A DNA stretch of 64,000 nucleotides from Escherichia coli (GTDB lineage: Bacteria; Pseudomonadota; Gammaproteobacteria; Enterobacterales; Enterobacteriaceae), in the NCBI RefSeq assembly GCF_003334815.1, contig NZ_QOWO01000008.1; one strand, 5' to 3'. The position numbers and the translations under genes were made by a program. The first letter of the stretch is position 1. Each line of letters begins with the position of its first letter. The notes under the pieces are model-generated. The model made no database searches, was not told the origin of the DNA, and saw only the letters and a program-made list of their open reading frames with translations. Of the stretch, positions 34,301-53,307 are shown in pieces.

Positions 34301-34507
34301 CGAAGGATGAAGAAAACTTGCGAGGTGTCTCGATGAACTGAAAAATGGCACAGTATAATTTATTCTACAGGTTATATTGGAAGCAAATATTTTAATATTA
34401 CATATTCAGTGAAGAAATGCGTAATAAAAATATACATTGCGCCTCCTGAAAAAATAAATTTTTTATGCTATTACGTATATTTGTATCTATTTCAATGGAA
34501 TGACAAC

Positions 34508-35110
34508 GTGAATATTAATTACCCTGCTGAATATGAAATTGGAGATATCGTCTTTACATGTATAGGTGCTGCCTTATTTGGTCAAATATCAGCTGCATCA
34601 AATTGCTGGAGTAATCACGTCGGGATCATTATCGGTCATAACGGTGAAGACTTCCTGGTTGCAGAAAGCCGGGTTCCCCTTTCAACCATCACCACGCTAT
34701 CTCGTTTTATTAAACGTTCGTCTAATCAACGCTATGCTATAAAGCGATTAGACGCTGGGCTGACAGAACGACAAAAACAACGAATTGTTGAACAGGTTCC
34801 CTCCCGGCTACGCAAACTTTACCACACCGGTTTTAAATACGAATCTTCGCGCCAGTTCTGTTCAAAATTTGTTTTTGATATTTATAAAGAAGCGCTATGT
34901 ATTCCGGTGGGTGAAATAGAGACGTTTGGAGAATTGTTAAATAGCAATCCGAATGCAAAACTCACTTTCTGGAAATTCTGGTTCCTGGGTTCTATTCCGT
35001 GGGAGCGTAAAACCGTCACGCCAGCCAGTTTGTGGCATCATCCGGGTTTGGTGTTGATTCATGCGGAGGGAGTGGAAACGCCTCAGCCGGAACTGACCGA
35101 GGCGGTATAA
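34508..35110 (+). CDS. yebB: Uncharacterised protein YebB (DUF830 / permuted papain-like fold family), about 200 aa; start uncertain
   Basis: ORF track 34409..35110 (233 aa, starts on GTG); the translation has no Met codon, so the start must be GTG or TTG; GTG at 34508 gives a 200-aa product [18 protein letters not shown]... consistent with my memory of the K-12 annotation. Confidence 0.65.
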
Positions 35111-42834: not shown

Positions 42835-45264
42835 TTACGCCTGAACAGCTGGCTGATCAAACGCCGTTAACTTCGGTGCATTGCCCGTATATTTTTCGAT
42901 ATACACCAACGCTGAGTTACCGGCACAGGCATTTGCCAGCTGCGAGCTGGGGATATCCGCCGTTAACACGTTCGCACTGCCGTTTTTACACAAGCCATTT
43001 TCCAGATCTGGCCATGCACCTTCATGCACGCATACCACGCCTTTTTTGATCCCGTCAGTCACCACCGCGCCTGTCAAAATCTGACCACGTTTGTTCCAGA
43101 CACGCACCAGATCGCCATTCGCAATACCAAAGCGTGCAGCATCTTCGGTGTGAATAGTGATTGGTTCACGATCGGCGATCGCATATTTTTTACGCAGTTC
43201 CGCATAGTTAAGCTGACTGTGTAAACGGTGTGCCGGATGTGCGGTCAGAAGCTGTAACTGCTTCTCGTCGGCGGTACCTTTCCATTCATCAGGAGCCAGC
43301 CAGGTTGGGTGTGCCGGGCAATCCTTATAGCCAAATTTTTCCAACGTTTTTGAATAGATTTCAATTTTGCCGCTTGGCGTACCCAGCGCATTTTTCACCG
43401 GATCGGCGCGGAAATCACCATAACGAACGTACTGTTCGTTCTTCTCGCTGCGGCGCATTTCGATCAGTTTATTTTGCTGCCAGAAGGCATTAAACATTGG
43501 CATAGTGACGCGTTGCGCACGGGCACCTTTCTGAGCGGCATCATAGAAAAATTTCAGCCACGCCATTTCATCTTTACCTTCGGTATAGATCTCTTTTCCG
43601 CCAGGTTTGAGTAATTCCGCAAGATCGGCAAACACGTCAAAATCGTTACGCGCTTCAAATTGCGGAGCAACAGCCTGCTTCATCGGCACAATATGCTGGT
43701 TGCTGTAATCACCGGTCATCGTCAAGTCATTGCGCTCAAACGATGTGGTGATCGGTAATACGATATCTGCGTGTTTGGCTGCTGCGGTCCAGTAGCATTC
43801 AGAAACGACGATCATCTCCGGTTTCTGCCATGCTTTAATCAGACGATTAGTATCCTGGTGATGGGTAAAGTTACCGCCACCCGCCCACCAGATCATTTTG
43901 ATATTCGGATACGTTTGTTCTTTACCGTTATGCTGATATTTGCCGCCAGGATTTTCCAGCGCATCGACGATACGGGCAACAGGAATCGCCGTCATTCCGC
44001 CATCATCAGCGGCCTCGCTGGCATGTCCGGCAATCGCCGCAGACATTTCCGGCAGCACGCCGCCAACACGCGTCGGGTTGCCACCGTTGGAGTAATGATA
44101 AGAGAAACCAAAACCGCCGCCCGGTGTACCAATCTGCCCTAACATCGCCGCCAGCGTCACCAGCATCCAGTGTTTCTGTTCACCATATTGCTGGCGCTGA
44201 ATTCCCCAGCCTGCCATCAGCATTGTGCGATTCGCCGCCATCAGTTCAGCGAGTTTGACTATCTGCGCTTCCGGTACGCCAGTAATTTCCGCCGCCCAGA
44301 CCGCGCTCTTCGGCGTATTATCGCTCTTACCTGTCAGATACTCTTCAAACTGCGGATACCCGGTAGTGTATTTTTCAAGGAACACTTTATCGTGTTTGCC
44401 TTGTGTCATCAGGGTATGCGCAATCCCTAACATCAGTGCCACGTCGGTGCCCATATTCGGCGCGATCCAGGTGGCATTATCGTCAAAGAATTCGATGGTT
44501 TCGGAGCGGATAGGATCAATGGCAATCACTGGTTTGCCAGATTTTTTCAGCTGATGGAAGTATTCCAGCCCTTGCTCATCGGTACTGCTCCAGGCAATTT
44601 TTAAGGTATTCAGCGGGTTCATTCCCCACAGCACCACAACCTGGCTGTTTTCCAGAATCAGCGGCCAGGAGGTCTGCTGTTCATACACCTCTACAGAACC
44701 GACCACATGCGGCATGATCACCTGTGCTGCCCCGGTTGAATAATCGCCGCTATGCCCGGAATAACCGCCCGCCAGGTTCATATAACGTTGCAGTAAGGTT
44801 TGCGCTTTATGCAACACGCCAGAAGAGCGCCAGCCGTAAGATCCGGCAAAAATGGCCGATGGTCCGTTAGCTTTACGAATACGATCATGTTGCTCATGAA
44901 TCAGTTTTAATGCCTGTTCCCAGCTCACCTGTACATAGGTATCTTCGCCACGACCTTTCGCCGGTTGCAGTGGATTATCGAGATAGCTTTTTCTCACCAT
45001 CGGATGCTGAATACGCGCCGTGGTGTGTACCTGATCCGCCGCCGTAGACTGTAAGGAATTCGGTATGGTTTTCGCCAGCGCGCCTGTTGAAGAAACAATC
45101 TTGCCGTCCTTCACTTCTACGTTCATCGCTCCCCAACGTCCCGCGGTGAGGATTTTACCGCCCTTCTCTTCTGCCCATGCGGGGAGCGGTGCTGCCGATG
45201 TCACCACCAGCGCTCCAGCGGCAATACCGCTGTGTTTAATAAATTCACGTCTTGTTAATGTCAT
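42835..45264 (-). CDS. torZ: TMAO/N-oxide reductase catalytic subunit TorZ (BisZ; molybdopterin, Tat-exported), 809 aa
   Basis: ORF track 42835..45282; known start [31 protein letters not shown] (twin-arginine signal) at ATG 45262-45264. Confidence 0.93.
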
Positions 45265-45288
45265 AACTTCCTCCCTGATCAACGAGGA

Positions 45289-46389
45289 TCACTGTTTCTC
45301 GGTAATATCTTTGGCGTTGTACTGGAAATACCGCGTTAAAATGTCCAGTTCGTTTTCGCTCATGCTGGTTCGTGCCCCCATTCCTTTGGCAATGGACGGC
45401 CACGCATTGACGGTGTAATGGTCGGCGGCAATAGGGGCATGACAACCAGCGCAATAGGTATCGTCAAGTTTTTCAGCGTATTGCCATAGCGGTTTACGGT
45501 CCGCTAATGCGGGATCGGTAAGCGCACCCTGTAAAGACGCCTGACGCCATTGATTGCCGTATTCGTCAGCCTGCCATTCCCCGTTTACAGTGAGCGCCTT
45601 GATACCTTCTTCACTTAATGTGGCTAGCGCCAGCCGTTGACCTGCCGCCAGGTAGAGCGTGTTTTCACTGCCCTGCATTTGATAACCCTGCAACAGAACG
45701 ATCGGCTGTTTGCCACTGGCATCAACGACGGTGAGATCGGTTCCAGGATTCACGGTAGCCAGCTCGCCTATGTGAGAAGTTTTGAAAGGATAAATATGTG
45801 CGCCATTAGTAACTGAAGTAGCGGCCTGACTTTCCAGCTCATGCGCCGCGTTGTCATCCATTTTTATTTCTGGCGGAAAATGGGCAATGCCTTTATGACA
45901 ATCGATACAGGTTTCGCTGTCCTTTTGTGCTTTGTTATGCATTTTCTGCGCAGATTCACTTTGCGAGGCAATATCCATGGCATCAAAAGAATGGCAACTA
46001 CGGCACGTTGCAGAGTCAGTGGCTTTTAATTCTTTCCATACTGTTTCGGCCATTTCCTGGCGATGAGCTTCGAACTTATCGTCACTGTCTATTTTGCCGC
46101 TAACAAATTCATGATAAATATCTTTAGATGCCTTTAATTTAGCAAATAAATAATCCATCCCTGACTTTGGAATATGGCAATCGGCACATTCCGCACGTAT
46201 CCCTTTCTGGTTCGAAAAGTGGACAGTTCCCTGATATTCCTCAAAAGGTTTACTCATCGAGTGGCAGGAAAGGCAAAATGCTGTATCCGACGTTTTATGT
46301 AAGGCTTTTTGCGCCAGCAATAACCCGCCGCCACCAACCACAACCGCTATCAGCAAAAACAATAACCCAATGCGTTTTTTCCCTCGCAT
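45289..46389 (-). CDS. torY: Pentahaem c-type cytochrome TorY (NapC/NirT family), 366 aa
   Basis: Full-length ORF with N-terminal TM segment and five CxxCH haem motifs (CLSCH, CADCH, CRSCH, CIDCH, CAGCH). Confidence 0.93.
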
Positions 46390-46696
46390 AGATTCCTCTA
46401 ATTAAATTACTGGACACCGAAATCATTGTATAATTAAATATACAACGAATTAACCGCTTGCATAATTAGGCACAACACTGCCTGAAACAATCGATAAAGA
46501 ATATGATTTATTACAATGTAATCATTAATTGCTAAGGAATAACCCAGTTGCTATTTAGAATATATATTTATCAGTTTTAGTAATTTAAATCCCATAATTA
46601 ATGTGAATATATACAATATTTTTAGCACAACGCTATGCGCACTGTCACCCGCTCAACAGATCACGGTTATCGTTCGTTTTTTATACTGTTCAGGGA

Positions 46697-47532
<836 letters not shown>

Positions 47533-47536
47533 TTAA

Positions 47537-48103
47537 TTACGCCGACTGCTCGCTGGCAACGATCTCTTCAATGGACCACGGATGAAACTTAATAGTTGTT
47601 TTGCCATCGGTGACCGCCAGCGTCGGATTCGGTAATCGCTCATGCTCACCTTTTGGCGAACTGGTTTTCACTGAGATCCCCGGTAGGCTGAGTCCTTCAT
47701 CAGAAAGCAATGCCAGCGCACGGGCATTCAGCGTTTCTGGATCACCCGGCAGAACGATTTCAATATGTTCCCAACCTTCGTGTGGGTAACGTTTTTCCCC
47801 GGGCCACGGTAGCTCCACAATAGAAAACTGCCAGTGCGCAACCTGTACCGGTTCATGCAATTTAAACAGACAAATCGGTCTGCCATTGATCATATTTTCT
47901 GACAAAAGCTCGCCACACTGTTCAAACCCGCGACGCCAGCGTTCAGCAGTGGCGTTTTGATGGCAACGCAAAGAAATGTGATCGGCAGTCAGCGGAGTGA
48001 TATTCAACCCCAGACGGCGGGAAAGTTCATCTAATGCGTGGATAAATCGCGGTAAATCCGATGCAATATCCTGCAGCTCGTCGATAGATTGCCAGTTCGC
48101 CAT
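47537..48103 (-). CDS. yecM: Putative metal-binding VOC/glyoxalase-like protein YecM, 188 aa
   Basis: ORF track 47537..48109; known start MANWQSIDELQDIASDLPRFIHALDELSRRLG at ATG 48101-48103. Confidence 0.85.
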   Translation of the reverse strand: MANWQSIDELQDIASDLPRFIHALDELSRRLGLNITPLTADHISLRCHQNATAERWRRGFEQCGELLSENMINGRPICLFKLHEPVQVAHWQFSIVELPWPGEKRYPHEGWEHIEIVLPGDPETLNARALALLSDEGLSLPGISVKTSSPKGEHERLPNPTLAVTDGKTTIKFHPWSIEEIVASEQSA

Positions 48104-48318
48104 AATCACTCTTCGTCTTTCAGTAAAAGCGTTAATTTACCCTGTTGCCCTGTGCCAACCAACCGCTGATTTCACGCCGCTTCTGATGCAATAGTGAAAA
48201 CGGCAATACGCCACGCGCACGTTGCTGACGAAAACAGCCATTTGCAGTATACTCCCGCCCTAATTTCTTTAACTGGTGCGGGCAATTTTTGCTCGCTTCA
48301 TCAATGTAAGGTATTCCG

Positions 48319-50052
48319 GTGAATATTCAGGCTCTTCTCTCAGAAAAAGTCCGTCAGGCCATGATTGCGGCAGGCGCGCCTGCGGATTGCGAACCGCAGG
48401 TTCGTCAGTCAGCAAAAGTTCAGTTCGGCGACTATCAGGCTAACGGCATGATGGCAGTTGCTAAAAAACTGGGTATGGCACCGCGACAATTAGCAGAGCA
48501 GGTGCTGACTCATCTGGATCTTAACGGTATCGCCAGCAAAGTTGAGATCGCCGGTCCAGGCTTTATCAACATTTTCCTTGATCCGGCATTCCTGGCTGAA
48601 CATGTTCAGCAGGCGCTGGCGTCCGATCGTCTCGGTGTTGCTACGCCAGAAAAACAGACCATTGTGGTTGACTACTCTGCGCCAAACGTGGCGAAAGAGA
48701 TGCATGTCGGTCACCTGCGCTCTACCATTATTGGTGACGCAGCAGTGCGTACTCTGGAGTTCCTCGGTCACAAAGTGATTCGCGCAAACCACGTCGGCGA
48801 CTGGGGCACTCAGTTCGGTATGCTGATTGCATGGCTGGAAAAGCAGCAGCAGGAAAACGCCGGTGAAATGGAGCTGGCTGACCTTGAAGGTTTCTACCGC
48901 GATGCGAAAAAGCATTACGATGAAGATGAAGAGTTCGCCGAGCGCGCACGTAACTACGTGGTAAAACTGCAAAGCGGTGACGAATATTTCCGCGAGATGT
49001 GGCGCAAACTGGTCGACATCACCATGACGCAGAACCAGATCACCTACGATCGTCTCAACGTGACGCTGACCCGTGATGACGTGATGGGCGAAAGCCTCTA
49101 CAACCCGATGCTGCCAGGAATTGTGGCGGATCTCAAAGCCAAAGGTCTGGCAGTAGAAAGCGAAGGGGCGACCGTCGTATTCCTTGATGAGTTTAAAAAC
49201 AAGGAAGGCGAACCGATGGGCGTGATCATTCAGAAGAAAGATGGCGGCTATCTCTACACCACCACTGATATCGCCTGTGCGAAATATCGTTATGAAACAC
49301 TGCATGCCGATCGCGTGCTGTATTACATCGACTCCCGTCAGCATCAACACCTGATGCAGGCATGGGCGATCGTCCGTAAAGCAGGCTATGTACCGGAATC
49401 CGTACCGCTGGAACACCACATGTTCGGCATGATGCTGGGTAAAGACGGCAAACCGTTCAAAACCCGCGCGGGTGGTACAGTGAAACTGGCCGATCTGCTG
49501 GATGAAGCCCTGGAACGTGCACGCCGTCTGGTGGCAGAAAAGAACCCGGATATGCCAGCCGACGAGCTGGAAAAACTGGCTAACGCGGTTGGTATTGGTG
49601 CGGTGAAATATGCGGATCTCTCCAAAAACCGCACCACGGACTACATCTTCGACTGGGACAACATGCTGGCGTTTGAGGGTAATACCGCGCCATACATGCA
49701 GTATGCATACACGCGTGTATTGTCCGTGTTCCGTAAAGCAGAAATTGACGAAGAGCAACTGGCTGCAGCTCCGGTTATCATCCGTGAAGATCGTGAAGCG
49801 CAACTGGCAGCTCGCCTGCTGCAGTTTGAAGAAACCCTCACCGTGGTTGCCCGTGAAGGCACGCCGCATGTAATGTGTGCTTACCTGTACGATCTGGCCG
49901 GTCTGTTCTCTGGCTTCTACGAGCACTGCCCGATCCTCAGCGCAGAAAACGAAGAAGTGCGTAACAGCCGTCTAAAACTGGCACAACTGACGGCGAAGAC
50001 GCTGAAGCTGGGTCTGGATACGCTGGGTATTGAGACTGTAGAGCGTATGTAA
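48319..50052 (+). CDS. argS: Arginine--tRNA ligase, 577 aa
   Basis: Full-length [55 protein letters not shown]...; class I HIGH-type motif in [16 protein letters not shown]. Confidence 0.96.
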
Positions 50053-50073
50053 TCGATTTTTCGTGAGAGTGAA

Positions 50074-50108
50074 GCCTGATCAGGGTTAGCCGATCAGGCT
50101 TTTTTATT
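50074..50108 (+). terminator. Rho-independent terminator of argS
   Basis: GCCTGATC-agggttagcc-GATCAGGC followed by TTTTTTATT. Confidence 0.8.
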
Positions 50109-50228
50109 GCCATCTAAATGTATTCTGAAAATGGACATGCCATTGTTTTCTCACTGTTGGATAAGAGGCCAGAAGCGTAATATCCGGCCCCAGGGAAACG
50201 ATAACGGTTGAATTTAAGGAATACCGCA

Positions 50229-50717
50229 GTGTTTAAATTTCTTGTATTAACATTAGGCATTATCTCTTGCCAGGCTTACGCAGAAGATACGGTTATAGTA
50301 AACGACCATGACATTTCAGCCATCAAAGATTGTTGGCAAAAAAATTCAGATGATGATACTGACGTTAACGTGATCAAATCATGCCTGCGACAAGAATACA
50401 ATCTCGTCGATGCGCAATTAAATAAAGCCTATGGTGAAGCTTATCGTTATATAGAACAAGTGCCACGCACAGGTGTAAAAAAACCTGATACCGAACAACT
50501 TAACTTGCTTAAAAAATCACAGCGAGCCTGGCTGGATTTTAGGGACAAAGAATGTGAATTAATCCTTTCAAATGAGGACGTTCAGGATTTAAGTGACCCT
50601 TATTCTGAATCAGAATGGCTCTCATGTATGATCATACAGACCAATACGCGAACTCGCCAGTTGCAGCTATACCGTAACTCTGAAGATTTTTATCCAAGCC
50701 CTTTGACAAGAGGATAA
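50229..50717 (+). CDS. yecT: Exported protein YecT (DUF1311 / LprI-like family), about 162 aa; start uncertain
   Basis: ORF track 50208..50717 starts on TTG; in-frame GTG at 50229 gives MFKFLVLTLGIISCQAYA... (signal peptide), consistent with my memory of the K-12 product length. Confidence 0.65.
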   Translation: MFKFLVLTLGIISCQAYAEDTVIVNDHDISAIKDCWQKNSDDDTDVNVIKSCLRQEYNLVDAQLNKAYGEAYRYIEQVPRTGVKKPDTEQLNLLKKSQRAWLDFRDKECELILSNEDVQDLSDPYSESEWLSCMIIQTNTRTRQLQLYRNSEDFYPSPLTRG

Positions 50718-50836
50718 TTCACATCTTTTTGGCATGTTTTGTTGCAAGCTATTCCTGATAAATAATTGCAACAAGACATCGAGCCTTTTTCACTGAGTTA
50801 TTAAACATACTCGCGAGCGCGTAATTTTTTTGTCCT

Positions 50837-51229
50837 TCAGCGATAATTCACAATCACTTCATTACGTTGTACCTTTAGCGGTGGAATTAACCGCCCACCG
50901 CCTGGCACTTCCCAGATAAATCGCAACGGTTCTGCTGCCGCTATACCGGAAAAGGCCACGGTGGTTCCGCTCTGCCCCTCTAATTCCACACAACGAGATT
51001 GCGAACACAAGCGAACCCGCAGTCCTGAAGGTGTCGGGCCGATAAGCTGATAACGCCACGCTACCAGCGTCATCAATCCTGAAGCAGGTTGTCGCGTAGA
51101 AAGAGGCGCAGACGACATCGACTCACCGCGATGATTTAGCGTAATTCCTACACTACTTGCCTGCCACATCCCCTCCCCGGCGGCTTGCACCAGCAGCGGA
51201 AACAATAATATTGCTAATAAGGTTCTCAT
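50837..51229 (-). CDS. flhE: Flagellar protein FlhE, 130 aa
   Basis: Full-length ORF MRTLLAILLFPLLVQAAGEGMWQASSVGITLNHRGES...; last gene of flhBAE. Confidence 0.9.
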   Translation of the reverse strand: MRTLLAILLFPLLVQAAGEGMWQASSVGITLNHRGESMSSAPLSTRQPASGLMTLVAWRYQLIGPTPSGLRVRLCSQSRCVELEGQSGTTVAFSGIAAAEPLRFIWEVPGGGRLIPPLKVQRNEVIVNYR

Positions 51230-53307
51230 TATTTGCCGCCAATTGTCGCCGTCATGCGGATATGTCGGTTATCAGACAGTTCCAGATTCGACAGGACCAC
51301 TAACTGCGGCAAGCTGCGGCGCAGGAAGCGAGACAATAATGGTCGCAGCGCGTGGTTCACCAACAATACTGGCGGCGCACCCAGCATCTCCTGACGGGAT
51401 AGCGCTTCCTGAGTTTGCGCCAGTAAACGATCCGCCAGCCCTGGCTCCAGTCCTCCCCCGCCCTGCAGCGCCTGTAGTAACAAACGTTCCAGCGGTGTAT
51501 CGAGGCCAATAACATGGACTTCATCTTTGCCAGGAAACCACTGCTGGGTAATCGCCCGTCCCAACGCCACGCGCACGGCGGCGGTTAATTCATGTGGATC
51601 GCTTTGGATGGGCGCATGTTCCGCCAGCGTTTCGAGAATGGTGCGCATATCGCGAATCGGTACTTTTTCATCGAGGAGATTTTGCAGCACTTTATGCAGT
51701 GTGGTGAGCGTGACGACGCCAGGAACGAGATCTTCCGTCAGCTTTGGCATCTCCTGGGCGACGCGATCCAACAGCTGTTGCGCCTCCTGACGACCAAACA
51801 GCTCTGCGGCATGCTGGCTAATGAGGTGGTTAAGATGCGTTGCTACCACCGTGCTGGCCTCAACCACTGTGTACCCCTGAATCTGCGCCTGTTCTTTTAG
51901 CGCACTTTCAATCCAGATAGCATTCAGGCCAAATGCCGGATCGACGGTCGCCTCACCAGGTAACGTCCCGGCAGCGGTTCCAGGGTTAATCGCCAGCCAG
52001 CGCCCCGGATAAGCATCACCACTGCCAATCTCCACGCCTTTCATCAAAATGCGATAGCGGGCAGGTTGCAGATCCATATTGTCGCGAATGTGCACCACTG
52101 GCGGCAGAAATCCCATCTCCTGGGCAAATTTCTTGCGGATACTGCGTATACGGCCCAACAACTCACCATCCTGCTGGAAATCGACCATCGGGATCAGTCG
52201 ATAACCCACTTCCATTCCCAGAGAATCTTCCAGTTGTACATCGTTCCACGTCGCTTCGACAACGGTATTATTCTCTGCCATTTTTACCGGTTTGGGTTCG
52301 GCAGGCGCTTTTTGTTCGCGTCCGCGTATCCACCAGGCCAGCCCGAGCAATCCGGCAGTGAACAGCAAAAATACCAGGTTCGGCATTCCAGGCACCAGGC
52401 CGAGTAAACCGAGCACGGCGGCGCTTAACAACATAACGCTTGGGTTACTGAAAAGCTGATTCACCATCTGCTCGCCAACATCCTGATCGGTGCTGACACG
52501 CGTAACGATGACCCCCGCGGCGGTAGAAATCACCAGCGCCGGAATTTGTGCCACCAGACCGTCGCCAATGGTCAATAGCGTATAACTTTCCGCCGCGTGT
52601 CCCATGCTCATGCCATGTTGCAGCACGCCGACCAGCAACCCGCCGACAATGTTAATGACCATGATGAGGATCCCGGCGATGGCATCGCCGCGAACAAACT
52701 TACTTGCCCCGTCCATTGAGCCGTAAAAATCGGCTTCCTGAGTCACTTCGGAGCGGCGTTTTTTCGCCTCATCTTCACCAATCAATCCGGCGTTAAGGTC
52801 GGCGTCAATCGCCATCTGCTTACCCGGCATACCATCGAGAACAAAGCGCGCACCCACTTCTGCGATACGCCCGGCACCTTTGGTAATGACCATAAAGTTG
52901 ATGATCACGAGAATGACAAACACCACGATACCGATAGCGAAATTGCCACCAACGAGGAAGTGACCGAACGCTTCGACCACCTTCCCTGCCGCCGCCGCGC
53001 CGGTATGCCCTTCCATTAAAATGATACGGGTTGAAGCCACGTTAAGTGCCAGACGCAACAGCGTGGTAAACAACAGAATGGTCGGAAACGCAGCAAACTC
53101 AAGCGTGCGCTGGGTAAACATCGCCACCAGCAACACCATGATCGACAAGGCAATATTGAAGGTAAACAACAGGTCGAGTATGAATGCGGGCAGTGGCAGC
53201 ACCATCATCGACAAGATCAACAGGATCAAAATCGGTCCGGCAAGGATCTGCCATTGTGTCGATTTCAGGTTTGCGGGCAGGCGCAGCATCGCGGCCAGAT
53301 TACTCAT
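51229..53307 (-). CDS. flhA: Flagellar type III export apparatus protein FlhA, 692 aa
   Basis: ORF track 51229..53382 over-extended into flhB; known start MSNLAAMLRLPANLKSTQWQILAGPILILLIL at ATG 53305-53307. Confidence 0.93.
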   Translation of the reverse strand: MSNLAAMLRLPANLKSTQWQILAGPILILLILSMMVLPLPAFILDLLFTFNIALSIMVLLVAMFTQRTLEFAAFPTILLFTTLLRLALNVASTRIILMEGHTGAAAAGKVVEAFGHFLVGGNFAIGIVVFVILVIINFMVITKGAGRIAEVGARFVLDGMPGKQMAIDADLNAGLIGEDEAKKRRSEVTQEADFYGSMDGASKFVRGDAIAGILIMVINIVGGLLVGVLQHGMSMGHAAESYTLLTIGDGLVAQIPALVISTAAGVIVTRVSTDQDVGEQMVNQLFSNPSVMLLSAAVLGLLGLVPGMPNLVFLLFTAGLLGLAWWIRGREQKAPAEPKPVKMAENNTVVEATWNDVQLEDSLGMEVGYRLIPMVDFQQDGELLGRIRSIRKKFAQEMGFLPPVVHIRDNMDLQPARYRILMKGVEIGSGDAYPGRWLAINPGTAAGTLPGEATVDPAFGLNAIWIESALKEQAQIQGYTVVEASTVVATHLNHLISQHAAELFGRQEAQQLLDRVAQEMPKLTEDLVPGVVTLTTLHKVLQNLLDEKVPIRDMRTILETLAEHAPIQSDPHELTAAVRVALGRAITQQWFPGKDEVHVIGLDTPLERLLLQALQGGGGLEPGLADRLLAQTQEALSRQEMLGAPPVLLVNHALRPLLSRFLRRSLPQLVVLSNLELSDNRHIRMTATIGGK

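Follow-up and report, generated by a model that had tools for sequence, protein, structure and literature searches.

The yecT locus and its product

The window analysed here is a stretch of 64,000 nucleotides of Escherichia coli DNA (NCBI RefSeq assembly GCF_003334815.1, contig NZ_QOWO01000008.1), and the subject of this study is yecT, a small gene in the 784-bp spacer between argS and flhE. Our results revealed that yecT is an accessory gene, polymorphic at a fixed chromosomal site. Its closest relatives lie within type VI secretion system (T6SS) clusters of other enterobacteria, and we propose below that its product may be an orphan immunity protein. Gene names were obtained by mapping the RefSeq annotation of an identical K-12 derivative onto the window. 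The coding sequence of yecT occupies 50229..50717 on the plus strand (GTG start, 162 amino acids and a stop codon), as given by RefSeq, the open reading frame (ORF) list and the N-termini of homologues. On one side lies argS (48319-50052, plus strand; ORF list and RefSeq annotation), and on the other flhE (50837-51229, minus strand), which is convergent to yecT and after which flhA and flhB follow. A preliminary description of this DNA had placed yecT between argS and the convergent end of the flhBAE operon, and both the ORF list and RefSeq agree with it.

The intrinsic terminator of argS was located at 50072..50106 on the plus strand (inverted repeat I6), where 10-bp arms (AAGCCTGATC/GATCAGGCTT) are followed by a T-run; its RNA fold has an energy of -22 kcal/mol (z = -3.25), and a simple terminator scan overlooked it owing to the 10-nt loop. 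The region from 50107 to 50228 on the plus strand is the upstream regulatory region of yecT. It includes an AAGGA Shine-Dalgarno sequence at 50215-50219 and is highly conserved across the K-12, O157 and cryptic-clade alleles; a scan of it for consensus sigma-70 sites returned no promoter. RefSeq also lists yecV, a 14-codon small ORF (MSIFRIHLDGNKKA) at 50094..50138 on the minus strand, which overlaps the argS terminator and is antisense to the yecT upstream region; the O157 counterpart ORF is annotated merely as 'hypothetical protein'. Downstream of yecT, a hairpin at 50734..50779 on the plus strand (inverted repeat I4; 14-nt arms, 18-nt loop) is followed by GAGCCTTTTT. Its RNA folds at -27.2 kcal/mol on the plus strand (z = -2.83) and at -27.6 kcal/mol on the minus strand (z = -2.19), and it is a possible terminator between yecT and flhE. 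An Rfam scan of 49900-51000 found no RNA family.

The ORF list opened yecT at TTG 50208, and the preliminary description had preferred GTG 50229. The later codon held up. It is the start in RefSeq, homologues begin at the aligned methionine, and GTG 50229 together with the AAGGA Shine-Dalgarno sequence does not vary among 44 Escherichia sequences. TTG 50208, by contrast, reads TTC in the O157 lineage. By these alignments, GTG 50229 is the correct yecT start. The N-terminus MFKFLVLTLGIISCQAYA, followed by ED, has by inspection the features of a Sec signal peptide (50229..50282, plus strand, residues 1-18), namely a lysine n-region, a 9-residue hydrophobic core and an A-x-A site with predicted cleavage after AYA. 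The motif [AS/N]-Y-A is kept in YecT homologues, and Cys14 is missing from the T6SS-linked relatives. YecT is predicted to be periplasmic.

The rest of the protein is an LprI/DUF1311 domain, as had been suggested from the sequence. Pfam PF07007 matches residues 35-145 (50331..50663, plus strand) over the whole model (1-106 of 106) with E = 1.4e-17 and 64.5 bits. The domain comprises three long helices and a short N-terminal helix and carries four conserved cysteines (35, 52, 109 and 133); YecT has both the helical bundle of the solved family member and the conserved cysteine pairs. The AlphaFold model of YecT is confident (predicted local distance difference test score 84.5), with the signal region appearing as a low-confidence N-terminal helix at residues 2-12. 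A sequence-profile search of PDB sequences retrieved the solved LprI/DUF1311 entry at E = 5.6e-12, and a single-sequence search of PDB sequences with YecT gave chance matches only. The confident model and the profile match together support the family assignment. The solved example, PP0307 of Pseudomonas putida (PDB 3GI7), is itself without known function. The YecT subfamily differs from the LprI/DUF1311 family at large by an extra N-terminal segment of about 15 residues (DHDIS...C), which follows the signal peptide, and by the C-terminal tail YPSPxxRG.

The composition of the locus is far from that of its surroundings. GC content was 0.39-0.40 in 300-bp windows across 50150-50899, whereas the argS and flhE/flhA flanks had 0.49-0.59. 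The 722-bp segment 50109-50830 had a GC content of 0.391 against a window mean of 0.5115 (standard deviation 0.033), i.e., z = -3.7, and only 0.85% of the equal-sized windows were as low; the AT-rich stretch noticed after the argS terminator in the preliminary description is therefore real, and its composition is not uniform with the flanks. The GC content of yecT itself (0.389) and that of its third codon positions (GC3, 0.337) were the lowest among 56 long-ORF gene proxies, for which the means were 0.514 (standard deviation 0.031) and 0.530 (standard deviation 0.059), respectively. However, low GC by itself is not diagnostic of accessory status, because yebB (34409-35110, plus strand, between ruvC and ruvA; GC 0.417; 'YebB family permuted papain-like enzyme'), which ranks second in the window for AT-richness, is nearly universal, being present in 5392 of the 5426 complete E. 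coli genomes. The torY-cutC intergenic region (about 46390-46776) reached a GC content of 0.30 in 300-bp windows, the minimum within the profiled range 44000-57000.

Distribution and history of yecT in Escherichia

The argS and flhE flanks were present in all 5426 complete E. coli genomes of the survey set. Between them, yecT DNA was found in 3642 genomes (67%), nearly full in 3554 of these, and the remaining 1784 (33%) had a compact allele with only 52 bp separating argS from flhE. The polymorphic segment of the spacer, 50056..50833 (no strand assigned), is thus swapped in those genomes for a 52-bp spacer, which contains a single strong bidirectional terminator hairpin (-19.4 kcal/mol, z = -4.88). 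The accessory nature of yecT, anticipated in the preliminary description, is confirmed by these counts, and universal conservation of the gene at this locus does not hold. Strains with yecT include K-12, O157:H7, O55:H7, O111 and O103. The empty allele occurred on backgrounds with flanks up to 6% different, one of them a strain named ST-131. The latter is of phylogroup B2. Since the two spacers are alignable for a few bases at their ends only, the derived allele cannot be told from the sequence alone. HH97 carries a third allele (L002 3917-4080), in which about 80 bp of G-rich sequence, unlike both common alleles, precede a 60-bp remnant of yecT codons 15-33 and then the end of flhE. This type was complete in two genomes only and represents an independent partial deletion or replacement. 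Furthermore, IS1 insertions were seen at the locus in some E. coli genomes, and truncated or frameshifted YecT products are named from Shigella flexneri. A metagenome scan with the subfamily alignment retrieved 44 loci, all of them E. coli yecT (85-99% identity), and among these 44 there were no further T6SS contexts and no cognate effector.

Outside E. coli, a scan of a genome collection with near-exact YecT peptide patterns gave matches in two cryptic Escherichia species only. In both, E. whittamii and Escherichia sp. E1V33, yecT occupies the same locus, with 96-97% amino-acid identity, and the 7 kb of DNA around it are colinear and 92-93% identical. In E. fergusonii (L014), a gene convergent with flhE is 56-58% identical to YecT, FlhE being 87% and the end of FlhA 84% identical to the E. 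coli proteins; the contig stops short of argS. The presence of the gene in the cryptic clades and in E. fergusonii indicates that a yecT-type gene already occupied the site before the divergence of E. coli. The divergent E. fergusonii version, which is no nearer to E. coli YecT than are the T6SS-linked genes of other genera, suggests cassette replacement at the site, and very different versions at one site would fit either such replacement or very fast divergence.

Within E. coli-type alleles, the ratio of nonsynonymous to synonymous divergence (dN/dS) of yecT was 0.10-0.22 (mean pairwise 0.15), and 20 of 21 distinct alleles were intact; judged by these substitution patterns, yecT is under purifying selection and functional where present. 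The synonymous divergence (dS) of yecT from the cryptic clades (L005/L006) was 0.10-0.16, about half the 0.31 of argS/flhA, as estimated from about 100 synonymous sites. This hints at a later lateral cassette exchange, or it could reflect a composition-related constraint.

Horizontal acquisition, which had been proposed for yecT from its composition and position, was supported, with qualifications. The composition and the polymorphism favour it, and signatures of mobility were lacking: the window ORF list and a repeat search revealed no integrase, insertion sequence, tRNA or convincing flanking repeats by yecT, so that an origin through a mobile element or flanking repeats is unsupported by them. 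An exact 11-bp direct repeat, GATAATTCACA, occurs at 50713-50723 (the yecT stop) and 50842-50852 (the flhE stop). By chance alone, 1 kb should contain about 0.1 repeats of this kind; this one lies off the empty-allele boundaries, and its significance is doubtful. A foreign origin of yecT nevertheless appears supported by the low GC of its subfamily (0.33-0.40 in every host, even where the locus GC was 0.44-0.55), by its likeness in GC to T6SS cargo (see below), by its reported repression by H-NS/StpA (PMC3950696) and by the divergent version in E. fergusonii. The acquisition would be old, and the transfer itself, its direction and its time are what we infer from these features.

YecT-like genes in type VI secretion clusters

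The YecT subfamily has very few members. Of 1.84 billion representative proteins, 80 matched at E <= 0.001, and besides YecT only four full-length clusters did so better than 1e-15; a profile search of 5.8 billion clusters gave about ten full-length clusters of the subfamily. The subfamily has named members in E. coli, E. fergusonii, Yersinia intermedia, Y. kristensenii, Enterobacter, Mangrovibacter, Gibbsiella, Cedecea and Pantoea dispersa. Further members are one Salmonella enterica record, one cluster beside a Citrobacter-type effector and, more distantly, Ignatzschineria. The closest relatives (59-62% identity) were all found inside T6SS clusters where the enterobacterium was GC-rich and the contig long enough. 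These are the Citrobacter-like loci L007, L008 and L011, the Yersinia intermedia loci L015-17, Gibbsiella L066, Mangrovibacter L067 and Enterobacter L069/L070, a small sample of eight distinct loci from five or more genera. A second Mangrovibacter locus, L068, lies on a short contig which ends inside the gene downstream of the YecT-like gene.

All of the clusters ran from (ClpV) and VgrG through a large polymorphic effector and between one and eight small genes to the YecT-like gene, after which came PAAR, a conserved membrane protein of 386-392 amino acids, TssM and TssA/TssF; the upstream part was seen only where the contig extends far enough. Several of the small genes between the effector and the YecT-like gene showed visible signal peptides. 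The effectors of L007, L008 and L015 stand directly after VgrG and have a common long N-terminal region, which starts with MKxCFPxRKxNG...WHGGIH. Their C-terminal domains were CHAP in L007, a Pesticin-like lysozyme in L008 and GH19 in L015; L066 has a Muramidase domain (PF11860), and L067 a Pesticin-like lysozyme as well as M23 with phage lysozyme. The L069 proteins contained no recognised toxin domain. All of the identifiable linked effector domains target peptidoglycan. By their general description, these effectors resemble the peptidoglycan-targeting class of WHIX effectors (PMC12135965).

Core and cargo differed sharply in composition. In six of the clusters, the core genes (VgrG, PAAR, the 386-aa protein and TssM) had GC contents of 0.50-0.61, and the toxin domains and nearly all small downstream genes had 0.31-0.43. 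The GC content of the YecT-like gene (0.36-0.385) was that of the cargo and not that of the core, indicating that it belongs to the swappable effector/immunity cargo. That of E. coli yecT (0.389) is like the cargo as well. Other genes of the LprI family occur in the same loci: one overlaps the stop codon of the pesticin-type effector in L008, and its 76%-identical homologue in L067 is the second gene downstream of the pesticin-type effector there.

Several further features of these loci were observed. The 386-392-aa protein always lies between PAAR and TssM (L007 6822-7982; L008 6383-7543; L015 9856-11034; L066 8808-9968) and has two apparent N-terminal transmembrane helices by eye; it has no Pfam or NCBIfam match, and because its GC content is core-like, it is probably an undescribed accessory component. 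In L015, the PAAR gene is duplicated almost identically (7291-7554 and 9590-9853), with a small signal-peptide gene, 1 kb of AT-rich non-coding DNA and the YecT-like gene between the copies. From its layout, the duplication looks like the scar of a cassette insertion by recombination at PAAR. In L009 and L010, from a low-GC host (locus GC 0.30-0.35), no T6SS genes were visible, and next after the YecT-like gene comes a gene for a 255-257-aa protein with no family match (L009 6595-7368; L010 4337-5110), a homologue of which (52-54% identity) is found in the Enterobacter T6SS cargo array at L069 4612-5379. This protein is a candidate for a further immunity family.

Function of YecT

Proteins with LprI domains have been linked with T6SS immunity before. 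In Pantoea agglomerans, they were predicted to be cognate or orphan immunity proteins for lysozyme-like T6SS effectors (PMC9796082; bioRxiv 10.1101/2023.03.17.533219), and in Salmonella Dublin the LprI-domain partner of a LysM effector in Salmonella pathogenicity island 19 was predicted to provide immunity (PMC8867033). LprI-domain proteins were also noted beside WHIX effectors (PMC12135965), and in enterohaemorrhagic E. coli the DUF1311 protein Etsi4 rescued the toxicity of Etse4 (PMC12981562). The proteins of the Pantoea T6SS1 hcp-island and of Salmonella Dublin consist of a signal peptide and an LprI domain, as YecT does. They are read as shields against lysozyme-like effectors, 'orphan' copies being kept without the toxin, and these are predictions too; however, their genes are still inside T6SS effector/immunity islands, whereas yecT is outside any. 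As for yecT itself (162 aa, 'unknown function'), PMC3950696 reports a promoter with a mapped start site, which BglJ-RcsB activates and H-NS/StpA partly represses. Our literature search found no paper that ties yecT to T6SS immunity, and the other papers that mention it (a strain-construction artefact, a sigma-54 site inside argS, a drug screen) were uninformative on function. Thus, yecT and its family were already known, and what is new here is the T6SS-cargo context of the relatives and the orphan-immunity reading.

We propose, with a probability of about 0.5, that YecT is an orphan periplasmic immunity protein which came from T6SS cargo and blocks a peptidoglycan hydrolase of the muramidase or lysozyme type. 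The gene would have derived from the AT-rich effector/immunity cargo of a T6SS cluster of other Enterobacterales. Its product would be exported to the periplasm, where it would bind and block a lysozyme- or muramidase-type enzyme that degrades peptidoglycan. In Escherichia, yecT would be kept silent by H-NS until BglJ-RcsB switches it on, and YecT would then shield a cell without such a weapon from muramidase effectors that competitors inject. That YecT is an inhibitor, which enzyme it targets, and when and in which direction the gene moved are points that we infer from the comparisons. Close homologues inside T6SS effector/immunity islands, as expected for an immunity protein, were found in eight loci. 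That yecT lies far from any T6SS is as expected of an orphan, and since BglJ-RcsB activates it and H-NS/StpA represses it, its regulation fits that of a silenced foreign gene which is inducible through the Rcs pathway.

Several observations weigh against this proposal. In none of the eight T6SS loci was the effector directly upstream of the YecT-subfamily gene; a small gene or a gap always intervened, so that no cognate toxin was identified, and in the loci read the gene was never bicistronic with a cognate effector. The fixed place before PAAR could mean that the gene has a conserved accessory role in that T6SS type, or it could be the downstream homology arm for cassette exchange. There was no T6SS gene near E. 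coli yecT, and at the sensitivity of blastn no E. coli genome had the PAAR belonging to such clusters. When the YecT-like gene together with PAAR served as query in a sensitive blastn search, yecT alone was found in E. coli (68% identity). Etsi4, the one DUF1311 immunity protein with experimental support, is only 21% identical to YecT over 91 residues, and the pesticin-linked 124-aa LprI protein is 27% identical. Keio-type screens which mention yecT showed no relevant phenotype.

Etsi4, whose sequence was taken from the TW14359 record, nevertheless belongs to the same Pfam family as YecT (E = 1.4e-11 in hmmsearch with the family profile), comes from the same species and is periplasmic, and the effector that it is reported to neutralise acts in the periplasm. 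The gene of Etsi4 adjoins those of its effector and hcp inside a T6SS cluster, whereas yecT stands alone at argS-flhE; O157 carries both etsi4 and yecT. Another immunity protein, TsiV3/TsaB of Vibrio cholerae, acts against the peptidoglycan-hydrolysing VgrG3 (PDB 4NSR; PMC4832377) and is 13% identical to YecT. It was missed by the YecT sequence-profile search of PDB sequences, and since both proteins are short helical bundles, the likeness is weak evidence of homology.

A more specific form of the proposal is tentative: the subfamily might be a conserved 'boundary' immunity gene of a WHIX-like, peptidoglycan-targeting effector island of enterobacterial T6SS clusters, which was captured as a lone gene by Escherichia, itself without that weapon, as an H-NS-silenced, BglJ-RcsB-inducible defence against T6SS muramidase attack, and which exists in two thirds of E. 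coli and was replaced or lost elsewhere.

Alternatively, YecT might inhibit lysozymes in general from its place in the periplasm, protecting against those of hosts or phages and not against T6SS effectors, like LprI of Mycobacterium tuberculosis or, functionally, Ivy, MliC and PliG of E. coli. Binding would work alike in both cases, with another target. The RefSeq product and family name ('lysozyme inhibitor LprI family protein') speaks for it, as does the lysozyme inhibition by M. tuberculosis LprI, which is cited in PMC12981562 and PMC8867033. YecT is also predicted to be periplasmic, and a YecT-type gene is found alone, without a T6SS, in E. coli, E. fergusonii and Ignatzschineria. However, the closest relatives are embedded in T6SS cargo and not in host-interaction loci, the extraintestinal pathogenic ST131 and 1783 other genomes are without yecT, and the gene is H-NS-silenced under standard conditions (PMC3950696). 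We regard a general inhibitor as unlikely.

Slightly less likely still would be a conserved accessory role of the subfamily in one enterobacterial T6SS type, where it might, for example, control how the cell wall is remodelled locally or give generic self-protection; the Escherichia copy would then be a stranded remnant whose role is different or minor. The place just upstream of PAAR, the 386-aa protein and TssM was invariant in five or more genera with any effector variant, and the YecT-like gene was never directly behind the effector, which speaks for such a role. However, its low GC content sets it with the swappable cargo and apart from the core, and the YecT-type gene exists without any T6SS in Escherichia, in Ignatzschineria and in the host of L009/L010. 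Moreover, the purifying selection on E. coli yecT argues that it is not a decaying remnant.

It is improbable that YecT regulates the biogenesis of flagella or Rcs signalling from the periplasm in the manner of UmoC, a role which would account for its position beside flhBAE. Its sole NCBIfam match was NF041434, 'UmoC family flagellar biogenesis regulator' (E = 5.5e-9), the family of UmoC of Proteus mirabilis, which is linked with flagellar genes and Rcs. A YecT-type gene neighbours flhE in both E. coli and E. fergusonii, flgDE is close to the one in L009, and yecT is a BglJ-RcsB target (PMC3950696). However, the match reached 36.1 bits against a curated cut-off of 120, and ten other DUF1311 proteins scored 22-38 bits, indicating that it is a generic and distant DUF1311-type similarity; a UmoC identity was rejected on this ground. 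Furthermore, yecT runs towards flhE and is transcribed from a promoter of its own, its nearest relatives are in T6SS clusters, and flhBAE was retained in the 1784 E. coli genomes without yecT. A search of the literature for umoC gave nothing bearing on YecT.

Least probable is that YecT is an outer-membrane lipoprotein like M. tuberculosis LprI, a reading that was rejected as unlikely on the start codon evidence and the non-conserved cysteine: the L-G-I-I-S-C sequence resembles a lipobox (IISC at residues 11-14, with V-I-S-C at the same place in E. fergusonii) and a TTG 50208 start would put its cysteine at residue 21, but the O157 lineage has TTC in place of that codon whereas no variation was seen in GTG 50229 or its Shine-Dalgarno sequence, the GTG start puts the cysteine at residue 14, before the usual range of 15-35 for a lipobox cysteine (PROSITE rule), the cysteine is missing from all T6SS-linked relatives, in which the AYA signal-peptidase I site is retained, and RefSeq gives no lipoprotein label.

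If the orphan-immunity proposal is true, it would provide a function for one of the remaining function-less K-12 genes, and a reason for the control of yecT by BglJ-RcsB and H-NS. It would also mean that chromosomal immunity to type VI attack, possibly inducible, can reside outside any T6SS cluster in a bacterium without this weapon type. The two-allele polymorphism (67% versus 33%) would offer natural isogenic-like contrasts for studies of gut competition. The view of how such systems work would be unchanged, and the published pattern of LprI immunity would be extended to a familiar gene.

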